Shown piece by piece: positions 2,493-28,335 of a DNA stretch of 28,335 nucleotides. The notes beneath the pieces were generated by a model, which saw nothing but the letters and a program-made list of their open reading frames with translations, did not search any database and was not told the origin of the DNA. Source of the stretch: a virus. Lineage: Duplodnaviria > Heunggongvirae > Uroviricota > Caudoviricetes. The stretch lies in the IMG/VR virus record IMGVR_UViG_2737471849_000009, one strand, 5' to 3'. The first letter of the stretch is position 1; every line of letters starts with the position of its first letter. The translations under genes were made by a program, and so were the position numbers.

Positions 2493-3320
2493 TTATTTAA
2501 TCTGGATAAATGGTGTATTGGCACCACTGGTCATGTATTGCGGCAGTGTACCGTTCCACTTGTTGATGGCTTCCAGCTCCATGACGCCTGGGTTCTGGCG
2601 TAGAGCTTCGCCGCGTAAACGAATGGCATCGGCTTCTGCCTGGGCTTTTGTTCGAATGGCATCAGCCTGTCCGGCAGCTTCCGCACGTAGCATGTTGGCC
2701 TCCGCTTCACGTTGCTTGACTTCCTGCTCGCGCTGCAGGGTTTTCTGGTTTGCCGTGACTTTGGCATTAATGCTGTCGATAACGGTTGGCGGGTACTCCG
2801 GCTTACCCACATATGAGAGGCTCATTACCTGAATACCGATAGGTGTCATCTCTGCCTGAATGTCTTTAAGAGCTTCATCCAGCAGCTCAGACTTGCCGCC
2901 GTCGATAAATTTGTCAGTGGTCATTTGGCTGGCCAGTCGGTTGAGTGCGTCGGCGATCTTCTGGCGCAGGTCAGTGTCGGTAATGTCATCCACGCCTTTG
3001 CGGTAGGTCTGAAACACCGTGGTAACTTTGGATGGATCAACTTTGTAGGCCACGCCAATGTGATAGCCGATGGTTGTACCGTCACTCATCTGGAAACTGA
3101 ACGGTTCATCGTAGGTCTTCATTTGTTTGAAGGTGGGGAAGATATAAACTTCAGTATTCCAGCCAGTCCAGTAGCGACCAACACCGACCACCTCACCGAC
3201 GCCTTTGTCGTCGCCCAGTTTATTTACCTTGATGCCAACATTACCTGGTTCAACGCGATCGCAACCGACAAGGCCAATAGTCGGCAGAACAATGGCTAAA
3301 GCAAAAATAATTTTTTTCAT
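2493..3320 (-). CDS. SPFH/band-7 (prohibitin/HflC-like) family lipoprotein
   Basis: 275 aa; N-terminal signal peptide with lipobox LVGC; C-terminal Ala/Glu/Arg-rich coiled-coil segment (QREQEVKQREAEANMLRAEAAGQADAIRTKAQAEADAIRLRGEA) typical of SPFH proteins. Confidence 0.75.
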   Translation of the reverse strand: MKKIIFALAIVLPTIGLVGCDRVEPGNVGIKVNKLGDDKGVGEVVGVGRYWTGWNTEVYIFPTFKQMKTYDEPFSFQMSDGTTIGYHIGVAYKVDPSKVTTVFQTYRKGVDDITDTDLRQKIADALNRLASQMTTDKFIDGGKSELLDEALKDIQAEMTPIGIQVMSLSYVGKPEYPPTVIDSINAKVTANQKTLQREQEVKQREAEANMLRAEAAGQADAIRTKAQAEADAIRLRGEALRQNPGVMELEAINKWNGTLPQYMTSGANTPFIQIK

Positions 3321-3505
3321 CTTTTATCCTTAGTGAAAGAAAGACCCTTGTAAATGGCATAAATGCAGGGCGGGGTCAGAAACGCCAGTGCAAAGCCAGA
3401 AATAACTGCTATCGTATCCTTCATGGATATAAGGAACGGAACGAGTAATCCGTAAATGCATGCGATAATTGCCAGTAAAATTACTATTGTGAAATACAGT
3501 CTCAT
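3317..3505 (-). CDS. Small membrane protein (62 aa, two predicted TM helices)
   Basis: Hydrophobic ORF whose stop overlaps the SPFH start in an ATGA arrangement, implying translational coupling. Confidence 0.5.
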   Translation of the reverse strand: MRLYFTIVILLAIIACIYGLLVPFLISMKDTIAVISGFALAFLTPPCIYAIYKGLSFTKDKR

Positions 3506-15577: not shown

Positions 15578-15928
15578 ATGCCATCACAAATCCCTCGTGC
15601 ATGCCGTAAGCGAGGCTGTGCAGGCACAACGACGGACAGTTCGGGCTACTGCGATAAGCATCGCGGCGAAGGTTGGACACAACATCAACGCGGACTGAGC
15701 CGCCACCAGCGTGGCTATGGCTCGAAATGGGATGCCATACGTGCGCGCATACTGAAGCGTGATAATCATTTGTGTCAGAACTGCCTGCGCAATGGGAGAG
15801 CCGTTGAAGCCAGAACTGTGGACCACATCATTCCGAAAGCGCATGGCGGTACGGATGCAGACGGTAATCTGCAGAGCCTGTGCTGGCCATGCCACAAGGA
15901 GAAAACAGCGCGTGAACGCATCAACTGA
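15578..15928 (+). CDS. HNH endonuclease (terminase-associated type)
   Basis: 116 aa from ATG 15578 with GAGGAG Shine-Dalgarno; HNH motif DHIIPKAHGGTDADGNLQSLCWPCHKEKT; cysteine pairs CRKRGC and CQNC; directly upstream of terS. Confidence 0.8.
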   Translation: MPSQIPRACRKRGCAGTTTDSSGYCDKHRGEGWTQHQRGLSRHQRGYGSKWDAIRARILKRDNHLCQNCLRNGRAVEARTVDHIIPKAHGGTDADGNLQSLCWPCHKEKTARERIN

Positions 15929-16076
15929 TAATCGTTCTCATCTGTAAGGGAGGGGCGGGTCAAATCTCTGCAACCCTGGCTGCTCAGTACCGCCGCCTGA
16001 CCCTTCCTCACATCGCCGCAGGTTCGAAAACTTTTTTTTGGAAATGTGAACAAACGATTGATAGGTAAGACCGATT

Positions 16077-16559
16077 ATGTCAGGACCTCCGAAAACCCCG
16101 CCAGGCCTGCATTTGATACGAGGCAACCCCTCAAAGCGTCCCGTTAAAGACCACAAAAAAACCGCTAAAAAGGATGAAAAAGGTCTTCCTAAAATTCCGC
16201 AGCATTTAGGGGCTCAGGGGAAGTACTGGTTCAGGCGAATGGCGGAAGAGCTGAATGCGGAAGGGATCATTTCTCAGCTTGATGCACGTGCGCTCGAGTT
16301 GCTGGTGGAAGCCTACACCGAATATCGGCATCACTGCGAAACACTCGATGTTGAGGGGTATACTTACCGCACGGAAACGCAGAGCGGTGATGTACTGATT
16401 AAGGCGCACCCCGCGGCGGCAATGAAAGCGGATGCCTGGAAGCGGATCCGGGCAATGCTTGCAGAGTTTGGTATGTCACCGGCAAGCCGGGCTAAAGTAA
16501 ATATCGCCGGACCGGATGATGTTGATCCGCTGGCGGAGCTTTTAAAAGCGAGAGACTGA
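16077..16559 (+). CDS. Terminase small subunit (P27-family-like)
   Basis: 160 aa basic protein directly upstream of and overlapping the large terminase start (TGATGG); position and size. Confidence 0.7.
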   Translation: MSGPPKTPPGLHLIRGNPSKRPVKDHKKTAKKDEKGLPKIPQHLGAQGKYWFRRMAEELNAEGIISQLDARALELLVEAYTEYRHHCETLDVEGYTYRTETQSGDVLIKAHPAAAMKADAWKRIRAMLAEFGMSPASRAKVNIAGPDDVDPLAELLKARD

Positions 16560-18316
16560 TGGCAAAAGTGGCTGACGGGATCCGCTACGCCGAACGTGTT
16601 GTTGCAGGAGAAATTGTTGCTGGCGAATTTGTCCGCCTGGCCTGCCAGCGTTTTCTTGATGATCTGAAGTACGGCGAAGAGCGGGGGATTTATTTCAGTG
16701 AACCCCGTGCGCAGCACATCCTGAATTTCTACAAATTTGTGCCTCATGTAAAAGGGGCGCTGGCAGGCCAGCCCATTGAGTTGATGGACTGGCATGTATT
16801 TATCCTCATTAATATTTTTGGTTTTGTCATTCCGCTGGTCAATGAAGAGACCGGGGAAGTTGTCATGCGCAGCGATGGCAGCGGACGTCCGGTGATGGTG
16901 CGCCGGTTCCGGACGGCGTACAACGAAGTCGCCCGTAAAAACGCAAAATCAACTCTGTCATCGGGTATCGGCCTGTATATGACGGGGGCAGATGGTGAAG
17001 GCGGAGCTGAGGTGTATTCAGCCGCAACCACGCGTGACCAGGCCAGAATCGTGTTTGAAGACGCCAAAAATATGGTCAGAAAAGCCCGGTCGACACTCGG
17101 GCGGTTGTTTGATTTCAACAAGCTGGCGATTTACCAGGAGCAGAGCGCATCAAAATTTGAACCGCTTTCTTCGGATGCAAACAACCTGGATGGTCTGAAC
17201 ATTCACTGCGCCATTATTGATGAGCTGCATGCACATAAAACCCGTGACGTGTGGGACGTTCTGGAAACGGCAACCGGTGCTCGTCTGCAGTCCCTTTTAT
17301 TTGGTATCACCACGGCAGGGTTTAACAAGGAAGGGATTTGTTACGAGCAGCGTGATTACGCCATCAAGGTATTGCGTGGCTATAACAGCGACGTGGAGGG
17401 CGCGGTAAAAGACGACTCCTACTTTGCGATTATTTACACCCTCGATGAGGGAGATGATCCGTTTGATGAAACGGTCTGGCAGAAAGCGAATCCCGGCCTG
17501 GGCATCTGTAAACGCTGGGATGATCTGCGTCGCTTGGCGAAAAAAGCGAAAGAACAGGTCTCTGCACGGGTGAATTTTTTTACCAAACACATGAATGTGT
17601 GGGTAACAGCAGAGTCTGCCTGGATGGACATGATTAAGTGGGAGAAGTGCGAATACATTGCCCCACGACATGAGCTGAAAACGTATCCCATGTGGGTCGG
17701 CGTTGACCTTGCTCATAAGATTGATATCTGTGCGGCGGCAAAACTCTGGCGAACGGATAACGGGCATGTTCATGCCGATTTTAAATTCTGGCTTCCGGAA
17801 GGACGGCTGGAACGATGCTCGCGGCAGCAGGCAGAACTTTACCGGAAGTGGGCGGAGATGGATAAGCTGATTCTGACGGATGGTGATGTTATCGATCATG
17901 CTCAGATAAAAAGTGACTTACTGGAATGGATTGGTGGTGAAAACCTCAGGGAACTGGGATTTGACCCGTGGAGCGCGATGCAGTTCAGCCTGGCACTGGC
18001 TGAAGAAGGGATACCGCTGGTGGAGGTTCCGCAGACGGTTCGCAATCTGTCAGAGGCCATGAAGGAAACGGAATCACTGGTCTATGCCGGGCGTTTCCAT
18101 CACAGCAATCATCCGGTCATGAACTGGATGATGTCTAACGTTACGGTAAAACCGGACAAAAACGACAATATCTTCCCGAATAAATCCACGCTGGAAGCCA
18201 AAATCGACGGTCCTGTTGCGATGTTTACAGCAATGAGCCGGATGCTGGTCAATGGCGGTGAACCGGAGCCGGATCTGTCTGAGCATCTGGTCAGCGTTGG
18301 TATCCGCTCGCTTTAA
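16559..18316 (+). CDS. Terminase large subunit
   Basis: 585 aa; N-terminal ATPase region and C-terminal nuclease-like region with conserved acidic residues ([15 protein letters not shown]); downstream of HNH and TerS. Confidence 0.9.
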
Positions 18317-18327
18317 CCGAGGTCATT

Positions 18328-18510
18328 ATGTTTCTGATAATTCTCACGCCACTGGTGGGCGTGCTGGGGGCGCTTTTGCTGTCGTATGGCACATGGCTGA
18401 TTTATCCCCCGGCAGGTTTTGTTGTTGCCGGGGGGCTGTGCCTGTGCTGGTCGTGGCTGGTTGCGCGTTATCTCGATCGTGGTCACCGGGTCGCCTCCGG
18501 AGGTGAGTAA
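18328..18510 (+). CDS. Small membrane protein (60 aa, two predicted TM helices)
   Basis: GAGGT Shine-Dalgarno 6 nt upstream of the ATG; stop overlaps the next start (TAATG); occupies the position where a portal gene is expected. Confidence 0.3.
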
Positions 18511-18737
18511 TGTTTTTCCAGGGGCTTTTTCAACGTAAAAATAATACCCCCGTCACAACGCCCGGGATGCTTGCGGAAGAACTTGGGTTGTCATACGACA
18601 CCTATACCGGACTGCAACCTGTATTTTCAGAGGATGATCGTGAACAGGTGATTGCCGTGTATGGCCCGGTGCATGCGCGGCTTCTTCGGCAGTCTCTGGA
18701 ACTGATCAGTGATGCCGGCGAGGTTAAAAAAAAGTAG
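18510..18737 (+). CDS. Tail assembly chaperone G-like (short; possibly truncated)
   Basis: 75-aa ORF ending in the slippery run GTT AAA AAA AAG TAG, directly upstream of a T-domain ORF in the -1 frame. Confidence 0.5.
   Translation: MFFQGLFQRKNNTPVTTPGMLAEELGLSYDTYTGLQPVFSEDDREQVIAVYGPVHARLLRQSLELISDAGEVKKK
18728..18734 (+). other. Candidate -1 programmed ribosomal frameshift heptamer A_AAA_AAG
   Basis: X_XXY_YYZ heptamer in the G frame 1 codon before the stop; the -1 frame opens at 18728 and is continuous with ORF 18749..19039. Confidence 0.55.
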
Positions 18738-18748
18738 CGCTTCCGGGG

Positions 18749-19039
18749 ATGCGTTTTCTGATGATGCTGGCACTCAGGATGGGGCGCACATTGTCAGAGT
18801 TACGCCGGGAAATGTCCGCATCAGAAATCATGATGTGGGCAGAATTTGACAGGTTCAGCCCGCTGGGGGACGAACGGGCTGATATCCGGGCTGCCCAGAT
18901 TGTTTCAGCTGTTTACGGTGCGCAGGGTGTCAAAGTACCACTGAATGATGCGCTTCTTCAGTGGGAGCATGAATCAGAAGAAAATAAATGCGATGATCCA
19001 TTTATTGGATTAGAGGTTGCTCTAATGTCTTCACTATAA
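18749..19039 (+). CDS. Tail assembly chaperone T domain (expected as a G-T fusion via -1 frameshift)
   Basis: 96-aa ORF (MRFLMMLALRMGRTLSELRREMSASEIMMWAEFDRFSPLGDERADIRAAQIVSAVYGAQGVKVPL) resembling recalled minor tail protein T sequences; frame is -1 relative to G. Confidence 0.6.
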   Translation: MRFLMMLALRMGRTLSELRREMSASEIMMWAEFDRFSPLGDERADIRAAQIVSAVYGAQGVKVPLNDALLQWEHESEENKCDDPFIGLEVALMSSL

Positions 19040-19097
19040 GATAATTTTTTAATCGTTTTGAAATTGAATGCTTTACTCAAAGTCAGGAGGATTAATC

Positions 19098-19439
19098 ATG
19101 AGAAAATCAGTGGTGACATTAGCTTGTTTGTTTTTTATTAGTGCATGTAAGCCATCAGATAATTATGTTATTTCTTTAGGGGAAAACTTAGTTAAAGATA
19201 AGCTTATTGATCCTGATAGTGCAAAATTTAATTCTTTTTTTCATAAGTCAGGTGATTTATATGGTTATGTTTGTGGTGATGTTAATTCAAAAAACACGTT
19301 TGGTGGATATACAGGGAAAAAGCCATATTTTGTTTATTTGGAAGTTGTGGATGGAAAAGTTAAGAGTCATGGGACTGTAACAATTGTTAATGATCATGAT
19401 CCAAGCAGTATGGAAAAATATAAGTTGTTTTGCCAATAA
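19098..19439 (+). CDS. AT-rich moron lipoprotein (113 aa)
   Basis: ATG 19098 with AGGAGG Shine-Dalgarno; signal peptide with lipobox ISAC; markedly AT-rich codons compared with flanking tail genes; own terminator downstream. Confidence 0.6.
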   Translation: MRKSVVTLACLFFISACKPSDNYVISLGENLVKDKLIDPDSAKFNSFFHKSGDLYGYVCGDVNSKNTFGGYTGKKPYFVYLEVVDGKVKSHGTVTIVNDHDPSSMEKYKLFCQ

Positions 19440-19449
19440 TTATCATCTT

Positions 19450-19475
19450 AAAAAACCGCAGAAGCGGTTTTTTTA
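19450..19475 (+). terminator. Intrinsic terminator after the moron lipoprotein gene (bidirectional shape)
   Basis: A5-CCGC-agaa-GCGG-T7 hairpin 11 nt after the lipoprotein stop and 14 nt before the tape measure start. Confidence 0.55.
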
Positions 19476-19488
19476 TGGGGTAAAGTAA

Positions 19489-22400
19489 ATGGCGACATTA
19501 CGTGAGCTGATTATTAAAATCTCGGCAAATTCCCGGTCATTCCAGTCAGAGATCTCCCGGGCTTCGCGTATGGGGCAGGATTACTACCGTACCATGCAGA
19601 ACGGAGGCCGGCAGTCCGCTGCTGCATCCCGTGAAATGCGGCGTGCACTGGCAGAAGTGACGGATCAGATAAATACAGCTAAATCTTCGGCACTGAATAT
19701 GGCGGGGGCATTTGCCGGGGCTTTTGCTACCGGTCATCTTATTTCTCTCGCCGATGAGTGGAATTCAGTAAATGCCCGTCTGAAGCAGGCCTCACAGTCC
19801 ACTGATGATTTTCAGGTATCACAACGTGAATTAATGGCAATCAGCCAGAGAACGGGAACGGCGTTTTCTGATAACGCCAGCCTTTTTGCCCGCTCTGCAG
19901 CTTCCATGCGGGAGTATGGCTACAGTTCTGAGGAGGTACTGAAAGTCACCGAGGCTATCTCCACGGGCCTGAAATTATCCGGTGCCAGTGCAGCAGAAGC
20001 CAGTTCGGTGATCACGCAGTTCAGTCAGGCACTGGCGCAGGGAGTGCTGCGCGGTGAAGAATTTAACTCTGTGAATGAGAACGGCGATCGTGTTATTCGT
20101 GCGCTGGCTGCGGGAATGGGTGTTGCCCGTAAGGATCTGAAGGCCATGGCGGATAACGGAAAGTTGACCGCCGATAAGGTTGTTCCTGCACTGATTAGTC
20201 AGCTTGGGGCGTTGCGTGATGAATATGCAGCAATGCCTGATACGGTTTCATCCTCTGCAACCAAAGTTGAAAACGCCTTTATGGCCTGGGTTGGTGGTGC
20301 GAACGAAGCAAGCGGAGTGACGAAGACGCTCTCCGGTGTGCTGAATGGTATTGCAGGCAATATTGACACTGTGGCAACCGCTGCCGGTGCTCTGGTTGCC
20401 GTCGGGGTAGCCCGATATTTTGGCAATATGGCATCTTCTGCTGGATCTGCAACTGCCGGATTAATTACTGCAGCCAGAAACGAAGTAGCTCTTGCGGAAG
20501 CGCAGCTCCGGGGGACGCAGATAGCAACCGCCAGGGCGCGTGCGGCGGTTTATCGTGCGCAACAGGCGGTCGCGGCTACCCGTGGTACTGAAAGACAGGC
20601 AGCCGCAGAAGCGAAACTGGCTGCTGCCCAGGCATCACTTACCCGTAATATTGCGGCCAGAACAGCAGCACAGACAACGCTGAATACTGTCACGTCAGTG
20701 GGGAGTCGTTTATTAAGTGGTGCGCTGGGGCTGGTTGGTGGTGTGCCGGGACTCGTCATGCTGGGGGCGACGGCCTGGTACACGATGTATCAGAATCAGG
20801 AGCAGGCCAGAGAATCTGCACGCCAGTATGCCGCAACAATCGACGAAATTCGCCAGAAAACGTCGGCAATGTCGCTTCCTGAAGCGTCAGATAATGAGGA
20901 AAAGACGCGGCAGGCACTGGAGGAACAAAATCGCCTGATTAACGAACAGGAAGGAAAAATTCGCGGACTGAAAAATCAAATTGCTGATTATCAACGTTGG
21001 CTTGATGAAAGTTCGCAGAGTGGTTCTGGTGCTGAAATCATCCTTAAAGGGCTTGCAGAAGCAACAAATCAACTGGCAGTTGAACAGTCCCGTCTCACAC
21101 AAATGCAGGGCAAAGCGCAATCCATTCAGGATGTGCTTGCCGGGCTGGAGGAGCGACGAGTGGCGTTGATCCGTCAACAGGCAGCGGAACAAAACAAAGC
21201 GTATCAGTCCCTGTTGATCATGAATGGGAAGCATACCGAGTTTAATCGCCTTCTCGGGCTTGGTAATGAATTACTTCAGCAGCGACAGGGGCTGGTGAAT
21301 GTACCGTTACGGCTACCACAGGCAACTCTGGATGATAAACAGCAGACCGCACTGAATAACAGCAAGCGCGAACTGGCTCTGTCCCGCCTTAAGGGGGAAG
21401 CGCGTGAGCGTGCCCGACTGGGCTATGCTGCGGATGATCTCGGCTTTGTGGGAGAGGCGTATCGGACAGCCAGACAGAATTATATCAATAACTCACTGGA
21501 TGCCTGGCGAAATAACCAGGCAAATAAACCCAAAGCGCATAAAAAGACCGAAGCGGAAAAAACAGAAGATATTTATAAACGGCTGATTAAACAGCAAAAA
21601 GAACAGATAGCACTGGCAGGGCAGAATACTGAACTGGCTAAGATGAAATATCAGGTCAGTCAGGGCGAATTATCAACCCTGTCAGAAGCGCAGAAAAAAA
21701 CGCTTTTGCAGAATGCAGCACTCATCGACCAGAAAAAGATTCGTGAGCAGCTTGCCGCGTATGAAAGCAGTCTGGCGGACAGTAATGCCAGTGCCCGGGC
21801 ATCTGACGACGCGCAGTTGCTGGGATATGGTGAAGGCTCACGGATGCGTGAACGACTCCAGGAAATGTGGAGTATCCGGCATGAGTTTGAGCAGAAAAAT
21901 AACGAGCTGCTGAGACAGTATCAGGCCGGAGAAATTGAAGAAGCCCTGTGGAAACAGGAGAAAGAACTGAATAAAAAATATCTGGAAGAGCGTCTCAGCG
22001 ATCAGCAGGATTATTATGCAAAGGCCGATGCTTTACGTAATAACTGGAATGCCGGACTCCAGGAGGGACTGACCAACTGGGCAGACAGTGCCACCGATTA
22101 TGCTTCACAGGCGGCAGATGCTGTTGTTTCCACGATGGACGGGCTGGTATCAAATATTTCCGATGCACTGGCCGGGAATGTTGTGGAGTGGAGGAACTGG
22201 GGGAGTTCAGTTCTCCGGGAAGTTTCAAAAATTCTGATGAATGCGGCCATTGTTAACGGACTGAAGTCACTCTCCGGTGCCGGAGGGTGGCTTGGTACGG
22301 TCGGCGGATGGATTTCGGGGGCGGTGGCAAACGCAAAAGGTGGTGTTTACACATCGGCAAATCTGAGTGCTTACAGTAACACTATTGTGGATACACCGAC

Positions 22401-22689
22401 GTATTTTGCTTTTGCGAAAGGTGCCGGGCTGATGGGCGAGGCCGGGCCTGAAGCTATCATGCCACTGACACGGGCAGCGGACGGCTCTCTTGGGGTCAGA
22501 GCCATTGGCAATGTGAATGGTGGCGGTGGATTTGTTTATTCTCCCGTGTATCACATTAGCATTCAGAATCAAGGGAGCAATGGCGAGATAGATACGCGCT
22601 CAGCCAGGGGACTGGTGGATCTGATCGACAGCAGGGTTGTGTCAATTATGCAGTCATCGCGTCGGGATGGAGGATTATACAGTGCCTGA
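19489..22689 (+). CDS. H: Tail tape measure protein
   Basis: 1066 aa, Ala/Gln-rich coiled-coil protein; C-terminal segments (NWADSATDYASQAADAV ... RRDGGLYSA) parallel lambda gpH; followed by M, L, K, I, J. Confidence 0.9.
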   Translation: MATLRELIIKISANSRSFQSEISRASRMGQDYYRTMQNGGRQSAAASREMRRALAEVTDQINTAKSSALNMAGAFAGAFATGHLISLADEWNSVNARLKQASQSTDDFQVSQRELMAISQRTGTAFSDNASLFARSAASMREYGYSSEEVLKVTEAISTGLKLSGASAAEASSVITQFSQALAQGVLRGEEFNSVNENGDRVIRALAAGMGVARKDLKAMADNGKLTADKVVPALISQLGALRDEYAAMPDTVSSSATKVENAFMAWVGGANEASGVTKTLSGVLNGIAGNIDTVATAAGALVAVGVARYFGNMASSAGSATAGLITAARNEVALAEAQLRGTQIATARARAAVYRAQQAVAATRGTERQAAAEAKLAAAQASLTRNIAARTAAQTTLNTVTSVGSRLLSGALGLVGGVPGLVMLGATAWYTMYQNQEQARESARQYAATIDEIRQKTSAMSLPEASDNEEKTRQALEEQNRLINEQEGKIRGLKNQIADYQRWLDESSQSGSGAEIILKGLAEATNQLAVEQSRLTQMQGKAQSIQDVLAGLEERRVALIRQQAAEQNKAYQSLLIMNGKHTEFNRLLGLGNELLQQRQGLVNVPLRLPQATLDDKQQTALNNSKRELALSRLKGEARERARLGYAADDLGFVGEAYRTARQNYINNSLDAWRNNQANKPKAHKKTEAEKTEDIYKRLIKQQKEQIALAGQNTELAKMKYQVSQGELSTLSEAQKKTLLQNAALIDQKKIREQLAAYESSLADSNASARASDDAQLLGYGEGSRMRERLQEMWSIRHEFEQKNNELLRQYQAGEIEEALWKQEKELNKKYLEERLSDQQDYYAKADALRNNWNAGLQEGLTNWADSATDYASQAADAVVSTMDGLVSNISDALAGNVVEWRNWGSSVLREVSKILMNAAIVNGLKSLSGAGGWLGTVGGWISGAVANAKGGVYTSANLSAYSNTIVDTPTYFAFAKGAGLMGEAGPEAIMPLTRAADGSLGVRAIGNVNGGGGFVYSPVYHISIQNQGSNGEIDTRSARGLVDLIDSRVVSIMQSSRRDGGLYSA

Positions 22690-23023
22690 GCCTGAAGTTT
22701 TTAACTGGATCCCCCGTGAGGGGATGGAGACGACACGAAAGCCATCAGTTATTACGGTAAAGTTTGGTGACGGATATGAACAGCGACGGGCTGGTGGGCT
22801 GAATGCGGATCTGAAAACGTTTAAACCGGTATTTCGTGTCACAGATGAATACTCCCGTGCCGCGCTGGACAGTTTTTTATCCCGTCATGCCGGGATTCGT
22901 GCTTTTTTGTGGCGCCCGCCAAAACACAACAGGACTGTCCGGGTTGTCTGCAGGGAGTGGAGCATTTCGGATAATGCCATGTATACCGATTTTAACTGTA
23001 CCTTTGAAGAGGTCACTCACTGA
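22667..23023 (+). CDS. M: Minor tail protein M
   Basis: 118 aa from ATG 22667 (overlaps the end of H); KFGDGYEQRRAGGLNADLKTFKPVF matches lambda gpM RFGDGYSQRAPAGLNANLKTY. Confidence 0.8.
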   Translation: MEDYTVPEPEVFNWIPREGMETTRKPSVITVKFGDGYEQRRAGGLNADLKTFKPVFRVTDEYSRAALDSFLSRHAGIRAFLWRPPKHNRTVRVVCREWSISDNAMYTDFNCTFEEVTH

Positions 23024-23721
23024 TGCAGGATATACAGCAGGAAACACTCAATGAGTGCACTAAAACGGAGCAATCCGCGCTGGTCGTGCTCTGGGAAATT
23101 GATCTGACAGAGGTCGGCGGAGATCGTTACTTTTTCTGCAATGAGCAGAACGAAAAAGGTGAACCAGTCACCTGGCAGGGGCGGCAGTATCAGGCCTATC
23201 CCATTCAGGGAAGTGGATTTGAGATGAACGGCAAAGGAGCCAGTGCAAGGCCAACGCTGAAAGTCTCTAATCTGCACGGCATGGTCACCGGGATGGCGGA
23301 AGACCTGCAGAGTCTGGTCGGCGGAACGGTGGTCCGGCGTAAGGTTTACGCCCGTTTTCTGGATGCGGTGAACTTCGTCAACGGAAACAGTGACGCCGAT
23401 CCGGAGCAGGAGGTGATCAGCCGCTGGCGCATCGAGCAGTGCAGCGAACTGAGCGCGGTGAGTGCCTCCTTTGTACTGTCCACGCCGACGGAAACGGATG
23501 GCGCTGTTTTTCCGGGGCGTATCATGCTGGCCAACACCTGCACCTGGACCTATCGCGGTGATGAGTGCGGTTATCACGGTCCGGCAGTCGCGGATGAATA
23601 TGACCAGCTGACGTCCGATACCACGAAAGATAAATGCAGCAAATGCCTGAGTGGCTGTAAGTTTCGCAATAACGTCGGCAACTTTGGCGGCTTCCTTTCC
23701 ATTAACAAACTTTCGCAGTAA
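23023..23721 (+). CDS. L: Minor tail protein L
   Basis: 232 aa, near-identical by recall to lambda gpL over its whole length (MQDIQQETLNECTKTEQSALVVLWEIDLTEVGG ... CSKCLSGCKFRNNVGNFGGFLSINKLSQ). Confidence 0.9.
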   Translation: MQDIQQETLNECTKTEQSALVVLWEIDLTEVGGDRYFFCNEQNEKGEPVTWQGRQYQAYPIQGSGFEMNGKGASARPTLKVSNLHGMVTGMAEDLQSLVGGTVVRRKVYARFLDAVNFVNGNSDADPEQEVISRWRIEQCSELSAVSASFVLSTPTETDGAVFPGRIMLANTCTWTYRGDECGYHGPAVADEYDQLTSDTTKDKCSKCLSGCKFRNNVGNFGGFLSINKLSQ

Positions 23722-23725
23722 ACCC

Positions 23726-24469
23726 ATGACAGAAACAGAATCAGCGATTCTGGCGCACGCCCGGCGATGTGCGCCAGCGGAGTCGTGCGGCTTCGTGGTG
23801 AGAGCGCCGGAGGGGGAAAGATATTTTCCCTGCATGAATATTTCCGGTGAGCCGGAGGGTTATTTCCGGATGTCGCCGGAAGACTGGCTGCAGGCAGAAA
23901 TGCAGGGTGAGATTGTGGCGCTGGTCCACAGCCACCCCGGTGGTCTGCCCTGGCTGAGTGAGGCCGACCGGCGGCTGCAGGTGCAGAGTGATTTGCCGTG
24001 GTGGCTGGTCTGCCTGGGCGTGATTCACAAGTTCCGCTGTGTGCCGTATCTCACCGGGCGGCGCTTTGAGCACGGAGTGACGGACTGTTACACGCTGTTC
24101 CGGGACGCTTACCATCTGGCGGGAATTGAGATGCCGGATTTTCACCGCGAGGATGACTGGTGGCGTCACGGTCAGAATCTCTATCTTGACAATATGGAGG
24201 CAACGGGTTTTTACCGTGTCGCACTGACAGAGGCGCAGCCGGGCGACGTGCTGCTGTGCAGCTTTGGTTCATCGGTGCCGAATCATGCTGCCATTTACTG
24301 CGGCGACGGCGAGCTGCTGCACCATATTCCTGAACAACTGAGTAAACGAGAGAGGTACACCGACAAATGGCAGCGACGCACACACTCCCTCTGGCGTCAC
24401 CGGGCATGGCACGCATCTGCCTTTACGGGGATTTGCAACGATTTGGCCGCCGCATTGACCTTCGTGTGA
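23726..24469 (+). CDS. K: Tail assembly protein K (JAB/MPN plus NlpC/P60-like)
   Basis: 247 aa from ATG 23726; MTETESAILAHARRCAPAESCGFVV ... HSHPGG (JAMM-like) ... NHAAIYCGDGELLHHI closely parallels lambda gpK. Confidence 0.85.
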   Translation: MTETESAILAHARRCAPAESCGFVVRAPEGERYFPCMNISGEPEGYFRMSPEDWLQAEMQGEIVALVHSHPGGLPWLSEADRRLQVQSDLPWWLVCLGVIHKFRCVPYLTGRRFEHGVTDCYTLFRDAYHLAGIEMPDFHREDDWWRHGQNLYLDNMEATGFYRVALTEAQPGDVLLCSFGSSVPNHAAIYCGDGELLHHIPEQLSKRERYTDKWQRRTHSLWRHRAWHASAFTGICNDLAAALTFV

Positions 24470-25014
24470 AAACGGGGGCTGAAGCCATCCGGGCGCTGGC
24501 CACACAGCTCCCGGCGTTTCGTCAGAAACTGAGCGATGGCTGGTATCAGATACGGATTGCCGGGCGTGATACAGGTGAAAACGAATTATCAGCCCGTCTG
24601 AATGAGCCGCTGGAAAATGGTGCCGTGATCCACATCGTACCGCGTCTGGCGGGTGCTAAAAGTGGCGGTATTTTTCAGGCAGTGCTGGGGGCGGCGCTGA
24701 TTGCGGTTGCATGGTGGAACCCTGTGGGCTGGCTGGGGGCCGCGGCTGTATCGGGTATGTATGCGGCAGGGGCCAGTATGATCCTGGGCGGTGTGGCGCA
24801 GATGCTGGCCCCCAAACCCAGAACCCCCCGAACACAGACAACGGATAACGGTAAGCAGAACACCTATTTCTCCTCACTGGATAACATGGTTGCCCAGGGC
24901 AATGTTCTGCCTGTTCTGTACGGTGAAATGCGCGTGGGGTCACGCGTGGTTTCTCAGGAGATCAGCACGGCAGACGAAGGGGACGGTGGTCAGGTTGTGG
25001 TGATTGGTCGCTGA
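24367..25014 (+). CDS. I: Tail assembly protein I
   Basis: 215 aa; N- and C-terminal regions (MAATHTLPLASPGMARICLYGDLQRFGRRIDLRVKTGAEAIRALATQLPAFRQKLSDGWYQ ... KQNTYFSSLDNMVAQGNVLPVLYGEMRVGSRVVSQEISTADEGDGGQVVVIGR) match lambda gpI. Confidence 0.85.
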   Translation: MAATHTLPLASPGMARICLYGDLQRFGRRIDLRVKTGAEAIRALATQLPAFRQKLSDGWYQIRIAGRDTGENELSARLNEPLENGAVIHIVPRLAGAKSGGIFQAVLGAALIAVAWWNPVGWLGAAAVSGMYAAGASMILGGVAQMLAPKPRTPRTQTTDNGKQNTYFSSLDNMVAQGNVLPVLYGEMRVGSRVVSQEISTADEGDGGQVVVIGR

Positions 25015-25033
25015 TGCAAAATGTTTTATGTGA

Positions 25034-25060
25034 AACCGCCTCAGGGCGGTTTTGTCGTTT
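25034..25060 (+). terminator. Hairpin with short T-tract between I and J (possible attenuator)
   Basis: AACCGCC-tcag-GGCGGTT followed by TTTTG; sits between the I stop and the J start. Confidence 0.35.
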
Positions 25061-25074
25061 ATGGAGCGTGAGGA

Positions 25075-28000
25075 ATGGGTAAAGGCAGCAGTAAGGGGCA
25101 TACCCCGCGCGAAGCGAAGGACAACCTGAAGTCCACGCAGCTGCTGAGTGTGATCGATGCCATCAGCGAAGGGCCGGTTGAAGGTCCGGTGGATGGATTA
25201 AAAAGCGTGCTGCTGAACAGTACACCTGTGCTGGACAGTGAGGGGAATACCAATATCTCCGGCGTCACGGTGGTGTTCCGGGCCGGTGAGCAGGAGCAGA
25301 CACCGCCGGAGGGGTTTGAATCCTCCGGCTCCGAGACGGTGCTGGGTACGGAAGTGAAATATGACACGCCGATCACCCGCACCATTACGTCTGCAAACAT
25401 CGACCGTCTGCGCTTTACCTTCGGTGTACAGGCACTGGTGGAAACCACCTCAAAGGGTGACAGGAATCCGTCGGAAGTCCGCCTGCTGGTTCAGATACAA
25501 CGTAACGGTGGCTGGGTGACGGAAAAAGACATCACCATTAAGGGCAAAACCACCTCGCAGTATCTGGCCTCGGTGGTGGTGGGTAACCTGCCGCCGCGCC
25601 CGTTCAACATCCGGATGCGCAGGATGACGCCGGACAGCACCACAGACCAGCTGCAGAACAAAACGCTCTGGTCGTCATACACTGAAATCATCGATGTGAA
25701 ACAGTGCTACCCGAACACGGCACTGGTTGGCGTACAGGTGGACTCGGAACAGTTCGGCAGTCAGCAGGTGAGCCGTAATTATCATCTGCGCGGGCGCATT
25801 CTGCAGGTGCCGTCGAACTATAACCCGCAGACGCGGCAATACAGCGGTATCTGGGACGGAACGTTTAAACCGGCATACAGCAACAACATGGCCTGGTGTC
25901 TGTGGGATATGCTGACCCATCCGCGCTACGGCATGGGGAAACGTCTTGGTGCGGCGGATGTGGATAAATGGGCGCTGTATGTCATCGGCCAGTACTGCGA
26001 CCAGTCAGTGCCGGACGGCTTTGGTGGCACGGAGCCGCGCATCACCTGTAATGCGTACCTGACCACACAGCGCAAGGCGTGGGATGTGCTCAGTGATTTC
26101 TGCTCGGCGATGCGCTGTATGCCGGTATGGAACGGGCAGACGCTGACGTTCGTGCAGGACCGACCATCGGATAAGGTGTGGACCTATAACCGCAGTAATG
26201 TGGTTATGCCGGATGATGGTGCGCCGTTCCGCTACAGCTTCAGCGCCCTGAAGGACCGCCATAATGCCGTTGAGGTGAACTGGATTGACCCGGATAACGG
26301 CTGGGAGACAGCGACAGAGCTTGTGGAGGACACGCAGGCCATTGCCCGTTACGGTCGTAATGTTACGAAGATGGATGCCTTTGGCTGTACCAGCCGGGGG
26401 CAGGCACACCGCGCCGGGCTGTGGCTGATTAAAACAGAACTGCTGGAAACGCAGACCGTGGACTTCAGCGTGGGGGCCGAAGGGCTTCGCCATGTGCCGG
26501 GCGATGTCATTGAAATCTGCGATGATGACTATGCCGGTATCAGCACCGGTGGTCGCGTGCTGGCGGTGAACAGCCAGACCCGGACGCTGACGCTCGACCG
26601 TGAAATCACGCTGCCATCCTCCGGTACCACGCTGATAAGCCTGGTTGACGGAAGTGGTAATCCGGTCAGCGTGGAGGTTCAGTCCGTCACCGACGGACTT
26701 AAGGTGAAAGTGAACCGGGTTCCTGACGGCGTTGCAGAATACAGTGTGTGGGGGCTGAAGCTGCCGACGCTGCGCCAGCGCCTGTTCCGCTGCGTGAGTA
26801 TCCGTGAGAACGACGACGGCACGTATGCCATCACCGCCGTGCAGCATGTACCGGAAAAAGAGGCCATCGTGGATAACGGGGCGCACTTTGACGGCGACCA
26901 GAGCGGCACGGTGAATGGTGTCACGCCGCCAGCGGTGCAGCACCTGACCGCCGAAGTCACCGCAGACAGCGGGGAATATCAGGTGCTGGCGCGCTGGGAG
27001 ACGCCGAAGGTGGTGAAGGGGGTGAGCTTCCTGCTTCGCCTGACCGTGGCAGCGGATGACGGCAGTGAGCGGCTGGTCAGCACGGCCCGGACGACGGAAA
27101 CCACATACCGCTTCAGGCAGCTGACGCTGGGGCGTTACAGGCTGACAGTCCGGGCGGTAAATGCGTGGGGACAGCAGGGAGACCCGGCGTCGGTATCGTT
27201 CCGGATTGCCGCACCGGCAGCACCGTCGAGGATTGAGCTGACGCCGGGCTATTTTCAGATAACCGCCACGCCGCATCTTGCCGTTTATGACCCGACGGTA
27301 CAGTTTGAGTTCTGGTTCTCGGAAAAACGGATTGCGGATATCAGGCAGGTTGAAACCACAGCCCGCTATCTTGGCACGGCGCTGTACTGGATAGCTGCCA
27401 GTATCAATATCAGGCCGGGCCATGATTATTATTTTTACGTTCGCAGTGTGAACACCGTTGGCAAATCGGCATTCGTGGAGGCTGTCGGTCGGGCGAGCGA
27501 TGATGCGGAAGGTTACCTGGATTTTTTCAAAGGCAAGATAACCGAATCTCATCTCGGCAAGGAGTTGCTGGAAAAAGTCGACCTGACGGAGGATAACGCC
27601 AGCAGACTGGAGGAGTTTTCGAAAGAGTGGAAGGACGCCAACGATAAGTGGAATGCCATGTGGGCTGTCAAAATTGAGCAGACCAAAGACGGCAAACATT
27701 ATGTCGCGGGACTTGGCCTCAGCATGGAGGATACAGAGGAAGGCAAACTGAGCCAGTTTCTGGTTGCCGCTAACCGTATCGCGTTTATTGACCCGGCAAA
27801 CGGGAATGAAACGCCGATGTTTGTGGCGCAGGGCAATCAGATATTCATGAACGACGTGTTCCTGAAGCGCCTGACGGCCCCCACCATTACCAGCGGCGGC
27901 AATCCCCCGGCCTTTTCCCTGACACCGGACGGAAAGCTGACGGCGAAAAATGCGGATATCAGTGGCAGTGTGAATGCGAACGCCGGGACGCTCAATAATG

Positions 28001-28335
28001 TCACGATTAATGAGAACTGTCAGATTCTGGGAAAACTGTCAGCTATTCAGATTGAAGGCGATATTGTTAAAACGGTGGGTAAGGCTTTCCCCCGTGACTC
28101 CCGGGCACCGGAGCGGTGGCCATCAGGGACCATTACCGTCAGGGTTTATGACGATCAGCCTTTTGACCGGCAAATTGTCATTCCGGCGGTGGCATTCAGC
28201 GGTGCCAGACATGAGAGAGAGCATAATGACATTTATTCATCATGCCGTCTGATAGTGCGGAAAAACGGTGCTGAAATTTATAACCGTACCGCGCTGGATA
28301 ATACGCTGATTTATACCGGTGTGATTGATATGCCA
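25075..28335 (+). CDS. J: Host specificity/central tail fibre protein J (partial; continues beyond window end)
   Basis: Open frame from ATG 25075 to the window edge; N-terminus [54 protein letters not shown] and long internal stretches match lambda gpJ; long minus-strand ORFs here are antisense shadows. Confidence 0.9.

Follow-up and report, generated by a model that had tools for sequence, protein, structure and literature searches.

The overlapping reading frames at positions 18510-19039 of the window (the whole stretch of 28,335 nucleotides of DNA that was analysed) raise the question of whether they are the G and T genes of a tail-assembly chaperone, joined by a programmed -1 frameshift, and why the G-like frame is so short. 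The first frame is an ORF of 75 amino acids (18510-18737, plus strand) with the C-terminus GEVKKK; it ends with the codons GTT (from 18723), AAA, AAA, AAG (18732-18734) and the stop codon TAG (18735-18737). In the -1 frame, the final upstream stop codon, TAA, occupies 18725-18727; the next one lies at 19037-19039, so that 18728-19036 is open. An ORF of 96 amino acids (18749-19039) is contained in this open frame. The 0 and -1 frames are both open over 7 nucleotides alone, and these 7 nucleotides are the heptamer A_AAA_AAG at 18728-18734. Fusion of the two frames is possible only at the heptamer, because the TAA codon shuts the -1 frame upstream of it. A shift at this point joins 101 residues to the 75, which gives a predicted fusion of 176 amino acids. 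The first-pass annotation had read the end of the ORF and the opening of the -1 frame after TAA correctly to the base, and the stop-free run that it described from the heptamer into the T-domain ORF, with a fusion of about 176 residues, was confirmed. The features of the overlap are as follows.

18725-18727, plus strand: stop codon TAA of the -1 frame, directly before the heptamer (frame reading).
18728-18734, plus strand: slippery heptamer A_AAA_AAG, inside a run of eight A residues (A8, 18726-18733), with the 0-frame stop codon TAG directly after it; the same in the intact prophage L002 and in phage phi467 (both described below) and in 80/80 IMG/VR loci.
18734-19039, plus strand: -1 frame extension of 101 codons and a stop codon, comprising the linker VALPG and the T domain (Pfam PF06223, PHROGs 14766 and 337); the linker and the motif FLMxLALRxGRTL are kept in relatives.

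The bare heptamer occurs in 16 copies on the two strands of the window, against 6.7 expected. The features above chance are its frame, its place in the 7-nucleotide overlap, the Pfam identity of the two halves, and the conservation of the site in relatives. With regard to the halves, the -1 extension has the T domain: residues 103-171 of the fusion match Phage_tail_T (PF06223, E=1.4e-17), and the extension also matches PHROGs 337 and 14766, annotated as "tail protein". The 75-residue ORF matches Phage_TAC_1 (PF06222, E=4.9e-16) with residues 33-75 only, which correspond to positions 82-124 of the 124 in the profile. PHROG 344, "tail assembly chaperone", matches residues 35-73 of the same ORF. 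A complete G domain is not present in it; residues 1-34 are those of a portal protein, and residues 1-80 of G are deleted.

The puzzling shortness of this "G" is explained by the fact that the 75-residue ORF is a deletion chimera. The intact prophage sequence of E. coli E21845/O/A (L002) was used as the reference. Window positions 15237-18611 align with L002 107-3481 at 100% identity (0 mismatches in 3,375 bp), and positions 18604-28335 align with L002 9001-18732 at 99.93% identity (7 mismatches in 9,732 bp, no gaps). The left and right alignments overlap by the 8 bp ATACCGGA, which are found at both parental sites. The deleted segment is L002 3482-9008, and from 15237 onward this one clean deletion of 5,527 bp is the structural difference between the window and the E21845/O/A prophage. 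In the comparison with L002, residues 1-34 of the chimera are exactly those that begin the portal protein, and residues 33-75, the last 43, are identical to residues 81-123 of G, which has 123 amino acids when intact. That portal codon 34 was joined to G codon 81 in frame is a matter of chance. The first-pass annotation had taken the locus as a G-T chaperone pair with a G much shorter than that of lambda; the T domain and the frameshift site remain valid, whereas the naturally short G has to be replaced by a portal-G chimera. The parts of the chimera and the retained genes on either side are listed below.

16559-18316, plus strand: large terminase, the intact head-module gene nearest to the deletion on its left side (Pfam TerL_ATPase, TerL_nuclease).
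18499-18503, plus strand: Shine-Dalgarno sequence GGAGG, 6 nucleotides 5' of the ATG at 18510; originally the ribosome-binding site of the portal gene, now that of the chimera (from the sequence; identical to the portal start region, L002 3350-3481).
18510-18603, plus strand: portal-derived 5' part, codons 1-31 and the first base of codon 32 (the portal CDS of L002 starts at 3380; the portal gene of phi467 is at the same place).
18604-18611, plus strand: deletion junction with the 8-bp microhomology ATACCGGA (limits of the two alignments: 18611 for the left one, 18604 for the right one).
18612-18737, plus strand: G-derived 3' part including the stop codon TAG, chimera residues 33-75 corresponding to G 81-123 (Pfam PF06222, PHROG 344, identity to the G of L002).
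19489-22689, plus strand: tape measure protein, retained, the normal partner of G and GT (Pfam TMP_3, Phage_HK97_TLTM, Tape_meas_lam_C).

The genes lost are the portal gene from codon 35, the prohead protease, the major capsid protein, the head-tail connector and the head closure protein, together with the HK97-gp10-like gene, the tail completion gene, the tube protein with an Ig domain and residues 1-80 of G. The similarity of related phages to the window extends through the terminase region to about 18611, where their portal gene is annotated to start, and covers the chaperone region from 18604. In phi467 the order is terminase, 60-residue ORF, portal, protease, capsid, connectors, tube, G (123 amino acids), T and tape measure, and the E21845/O/A prophage likewise has the intact order from terminase through tape measure. 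None of 5,426 complete E. coli genomes gave a match spanning the junction, and 1,379 of them had one or both flanks; the 34-mer of the junction was also absent from IMG/VR, JGI metagenome contigs and GTDB species representatives. The sole source of junction matches was Logan, the assemblies of public read sets, in which two contigs encode the exact 75-residue protein. In the contig retrieved, SRR17587033, the ORF has the same neighbours, and an alignment of 6,228 bp to the window shows 100% identity. An assembly artefact at the junction was considered and rejected: 8 bp of common sequence are not enough to mislead an assembler, and the same contig was obtained from two independent read sets. 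The deletion is accordingly natural, strain-specific and recent. The near-identity to the intact relative means that there has been no time for decay since it occurred.

The slip site was compared in close and distant relatives. The sequence GAGGTTAAAAAAAAGTAG and the 101-residue extension are found in 80 of 80 IMG/VR loci with the same full-length G. These loci were obtained by a search with the full-length G and all have an identical G; they are uninformative on distant conservation and show that the A8 run is stable. Distant relatives, nine members of the G family with identities from 68% down to 29%, were obtained by a protein search of annotated phages. All nine have a site containing A_AAG, 0-11 codons before the stop codon of G, in the following forms.

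Stx1 phage Stx1_EH1992: 0-frame AGA AAA AAG TAG, slip site A_AAA_AAG.
Proteus Pm34: 0-frame GAA AAA AAG TAG, slip site A_AAA_AAG.
Burkholderia phi1026b and TXDOH: 0-frame GCA AAA AAG, slip site A_AAA_AAG.
Burkholderia Bcep176: 0-frame GGA AAA AAG, slip site A_AAA_AAG.
mEp506: 0-frame GCG GGA AAG, slip site G_GGA_AAG (lambda type).
HK446 and Cronobacter ENT39118: 0-frame GAA AAG preceded by CGG or GTG, slip site G_GAA_AAG.
Klebsiella vB_VIPKPNMC05: 0-frame GCA AAG TAA, A_AAG and a stop codon.

In all of these relatives the -1 frame enters the sequence (V/A)xxxPGxxFLMxLALRxGRTLxEL, with LEM in place of FLM in Bcep176. The joined CDS is already annotated in two records, as gp11 of HK446 and gp69' of Bcep176, and the length of G is 123-156 amino acids in every relative examined. 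With the PF06223 extension, the PF06222 C-terminus and a slip site kept in homologues, the assignment of the locus to the conserved G/GT frameshift of tail-assembly chaperones, as first proposed for it, was borne out.

Three other readings of the locus should be weighed against this. An intact and functional G-T pair, with a G that is naturally 75 amino acids long and supports tail assembly, would agree with the detection of both Pfam families, with the tape measure gene downstream, and with an open ORF behind a good Shine-Dalgarno sequence. However, the first 34 residues come from the N-terminal end of the portal protein, the chaperone profile is matched in its last third alone, and no relative examined has a G as short as this. 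Furthermore, the tube, portal and capsid genes are missing, and the junction is found in none of the 5,426 complete genomes. This reading is contradicted by the alignment to the intact prophage and is extremely unlikely. Translation of T alone, from ATG codons in frame at 18749, 18758 or 18761 and with the heptamer being incidental, would fit the gene calls of RefSeq and Logan, which give T as a separate CDS of 92 amino acids. In Stx1_EH1992, ENT39118, Pm34, mEp506 and the Burkholderia phages, however, the slip site is not followed by any Met before the conserved FLM is reached (LEM in Bcep176), and the intervening (V/A)xxxPGxxF is nonetheless conserved. This conservation implies that the linker is translated, which in the relatives lacking a Met could occur only by read-through from G. 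In addition, the -1 frame opens just 7 nucleotides before the stop codon of G in the window and in the Klebsiella phage, a good Shine-Dalgarno sequence is not found before 18749, and the GT protein of lambda was reported to be a frameshift product (PMC5009743). An independent start of T is very improbable.

The frameshift itself might also arise mainly in transcription, if RNA polymerase inserts an additional A while copying the A8 run, which brings T into frame with one extra Lys. The run at 18726-18733 exceeds the threshold of 7 A residues, and direct reading of the sequence confirms that an inserted A gives the same downstream frame. Runs of more than 7 A residues are listed as sites of programmed transcriptional realignment, and Thermus dnaX uses A9 (PMC3711429). 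Nevertheless, it is the AAG codon that is conserved and not the length of the run: at this site there are no more than 3-4 A residues in the Klebsiella phage, mEp506, HK446 and ENT39118. These homologues shift at the same position with GCG GGA AAG, GTG GAA AAG or GCA AAG TAA, which are unable to support slippage of the polymerase, and the mechanism common to the family is for this reason considered to be ribosomal. A_AAA_AAG is, moreover, among the most shift-prone heptamers for the ribosomes of E. coli, whose sole tRNA-Lys pairs better with AAA than with AAG (PMC5009743). Transcriptional slippage as the main source of the fusion is thus improbable, although somewhat less so than the two readings above.

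The locus is very probably the programmed -1 frameshift signal of G/GT in an HK97-like prophage of E. coli, preserved beside a recent deletion of 5,527 bp. In the intact parent, most ribosomes translating the 123-residue G would terminate at TAG. A few per cent of them would slip back by one base on A_AAA_AAG, where the single tRNA-Lys re-pairs from AAG to AAA, and the shift is possibly helped by the adjacent TAG stop codon. The slipped ribosomes would enter T and produce a GT protein of 224 amino acids. Coating of the tape measure protein would then be the task of G and of the G part of GT, and recruitment of the tail tube protein that of the T part. Illegitimate recombination between the two ATACCGGA octamers would have placed portal codon 34 in frame with G codon 81. 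Since the signal was left untouched and the strong ribosome-binding site of the portal gene was inherited, chimeric products of 75 and 176 amino acids are expected if the late operon is transcribed. The chimeric ORF is probably translated whenever this operon is on, and the signal is probably still able to shift ribosomes. We infer that slippage is ribosomal and occurs at a rate of a few per cent, and that neither product has a function.

The 43 C-terminal residues of G that are retained may keep partial binding activity. However, the window lacks two thirds of G as well as the tube protein, and the chimeric products should therefore be unable to serve as a chaperone. Because the portal, protease and capsid genes are gone, the prophage would make no heads; by its gene content it is predicted to be defective, producing neither heads nor tails. 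The G-T pair of the first-pass annotation is accordingly not expected to serve tail assembly in this prophage: the tube gene was lost together with every head gene except those for the terminase subunits, all in the one deletion.

The surroundings of the chimera are unusual for a tail chaperone. Upstream are an HNH gene, the small and large terminase genes and an ORF for a membrane protein of 60 amino acids; downstream are a small AT-rich ORF, the tape measure gene and homologues of lambda M, L, K and I. Portal, protease, capsid, connector and tube genes were not found in the window around the chaperone. The position between tube and tape measure genes is seen in the intact L002 and, with the tube gene absent, not in the window. 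A scan of 18250-19600 for promoters and terminators gave nothing clearly over background.

Several neighbouring features are described here in their own right. The 60-residue ORF (18328-18510, plus strand) lies between the large terminase and the portal start, encodes two membrane helices, and matches phrog_502, "membrane protein", of the moron category; it is also present in phi467 and SfII-like phages. The ATG of the chimera overlaps its TAA stop codon. A small hairpin, TCGCCTCCGGAGGTGA (18491-18506), holds the Shine-Dalgarno sequence of the portal or chimera ORF, which hints at translational coupling between this ORF and the 60-residue one. The tape measure gene (19489) is separated from T by an AT-rich insert of 450 bp (19040-19488), with a GC content of 0.30 against 0.50 for the window. 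Its ORF, which begins at 19068 or 19098 and ends at 19439 (plus strand), encodes a predicted lipoprotein (MRKSVVTLACLFFISAC...) with no Pfam match; its PHROG match, phrog_2320, has no known function. This ORF takes the slot of the HK446 ORF annotated as "similar to HK97 Gp15", which we take to correspond to a known moron. An exact 40-mer from the insert ORF was found in 2 of the 80 IMG/VR loci with identical G. A variant C-terminus of T (...SEENKCDDPFIGLEVALMSSL) is shared by 3 of the 80 loci with the window and L002, the two sequences known to have the insert.

At its right end the window contains part of the J tail-tip gene. Six of the seven mismatches to E21845/O/A are within 93 bp of this gene (26770-26862) and are all transitions; the cluster may reflect a local hotspot or recombination in a small patch. 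J is missing from the list of ORFs because it runs off the end of the window. A second deletion removing J was considered and rejected, as the alignment with L002 continues without a gap to the end of the window. An ORF of 564 amino acids on the minus strand (26005-27699) lies wholly inside the region aligned to the plus-strand J gene of L002 and is probably a spurious antisense ORF. On the left, the alignment to E21845/O/A begins at window position 15237 (L002 107), and L002 extends 106 bp further; this marks 15131-15237 as a mosaic joint, where the packaging module meets the late or lysis region. The prophage also has cargo-like genes, at 2493-3320 (minus strand) and 13953-14756 (plus strand), for an SPFH/Band 7 protein and a regulator of the AraC family, respectively.

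The G/GT frameshift is already known as a textbook case of recoding, and prophages of E. coli commonly carry this exact sequence. What the locus adds is that a "short G" adjoining a slip site can be the scar of a deletion, and that partial coverage of the Pfam profile reveals such a scar. For annotation, T in loci of this kind is better described as a CDS joined by slippage, and the present prophage is to be classed as defective. It is barely conceivable that the 176-residue chimera, if expressed, sequesters the tube protein of an HK97-like phage that is co-resident or superinfecting, and thus acts as an accidental dominant-negative inhibitor of tail assembly. A chimera with a complete T and little of G would, if this were true, upset the G:GT balance that HK97-like phages need. 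This idea comes from the domain content of the chimera, and the recent and rare nature of the deletion argues against selection for such a role.

Among known systems, the gamma/tau site of E. coli dnaX has the identical heptamer A_AAA_AAG, also read by the single tRNA-Lys (PMC5009743). Frameshifting yields the shorter of the two proteins in dnaX, whereas it yields the longer one here. In dnaX, shifting reaches about 50% with two stimulators, an upstream Shine-Dalgarno sequence and a downstream hairpin (PMC3711429). A downstream hairpin like that of dnaX was not found at 18735-18830, where the fold has an energy of -29.5 kcal/mol against a mean of -27.9 for shuffled sequences (z=-0.56). A conserved and correctly spaced upstream Shine-Dalgarno sequence is likewise absent: the only candidate is GAGG at 18720-18723, 4 nucleotides 5' of the heptamer, and the sequence upstream of the heptamer differs in Stx1_EH1992, Pm34 and phi1026b. 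The spacing required in dnaX is about 10 nucleotides upstream of the heptamer. The description of the site as dnaX-type, made at first reading, consequently applies to the heptamer and not to the stimulators.

The G/GT system of lambda follows the same logic and has a T domain of the same family. Its heptamer is G_GGA_AAG in place of A_AAA_AAG, and mEp506, a member of the present G family, uses this lambda-type heptamer. The G protein of lambda presumably belongs to a Pfam chaperone family different from PF06222. In lambda, GT is a frameshift product made at a G:GT ratio of about 30:1. The partner of G, both alone and as part of GT, is the tape measure protein, to which it binds; T binds to the tube protein (PMC5009743).

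With respect to the deletion, the locus resembles the defective (cryptic) prophages of E. coli that arose by internal deletion, in that a structural module was lost through a short microhomology, the flanking genes are intact, and a fused ORF was left behind. It differs from them in that the deletion is very recent and is seen in two read-set assemblies only.

The closest likeness is to the G/GT pairs of the HK97 family, such as gp12 and gp11 of HK446 and the HK97 tail-assembly chaperone and Gp14 to which the HK446 annotation refers. The frameshift of tail chaperones is conserved (Xu, Hendrix and Duda 2004, as cited in PMC5009743), and two genes of an HK97-like tail-chaperone cluster were measured at 6% and 7% frameshifting (PMC3711429). 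The HK97-family pairs have the same combination of PF06222 and PF06223, the same -1 direction, a slip site in the last codons of G, the same T motif FLMxLALRxGRTL, and the tape measure gene downstream; the heptamer is A_AAA_AAG here and G_GAA_AAG in HK446. The intact L002 is a plain member of this family. In the window, by contrast, G is represented by its last 43 residues on 34 residues of the portal protein, and the upstream tube gene is deleted. The complete G and the upstream tube gene are lacking here because of the deletion, and not because the locus is a new variant.
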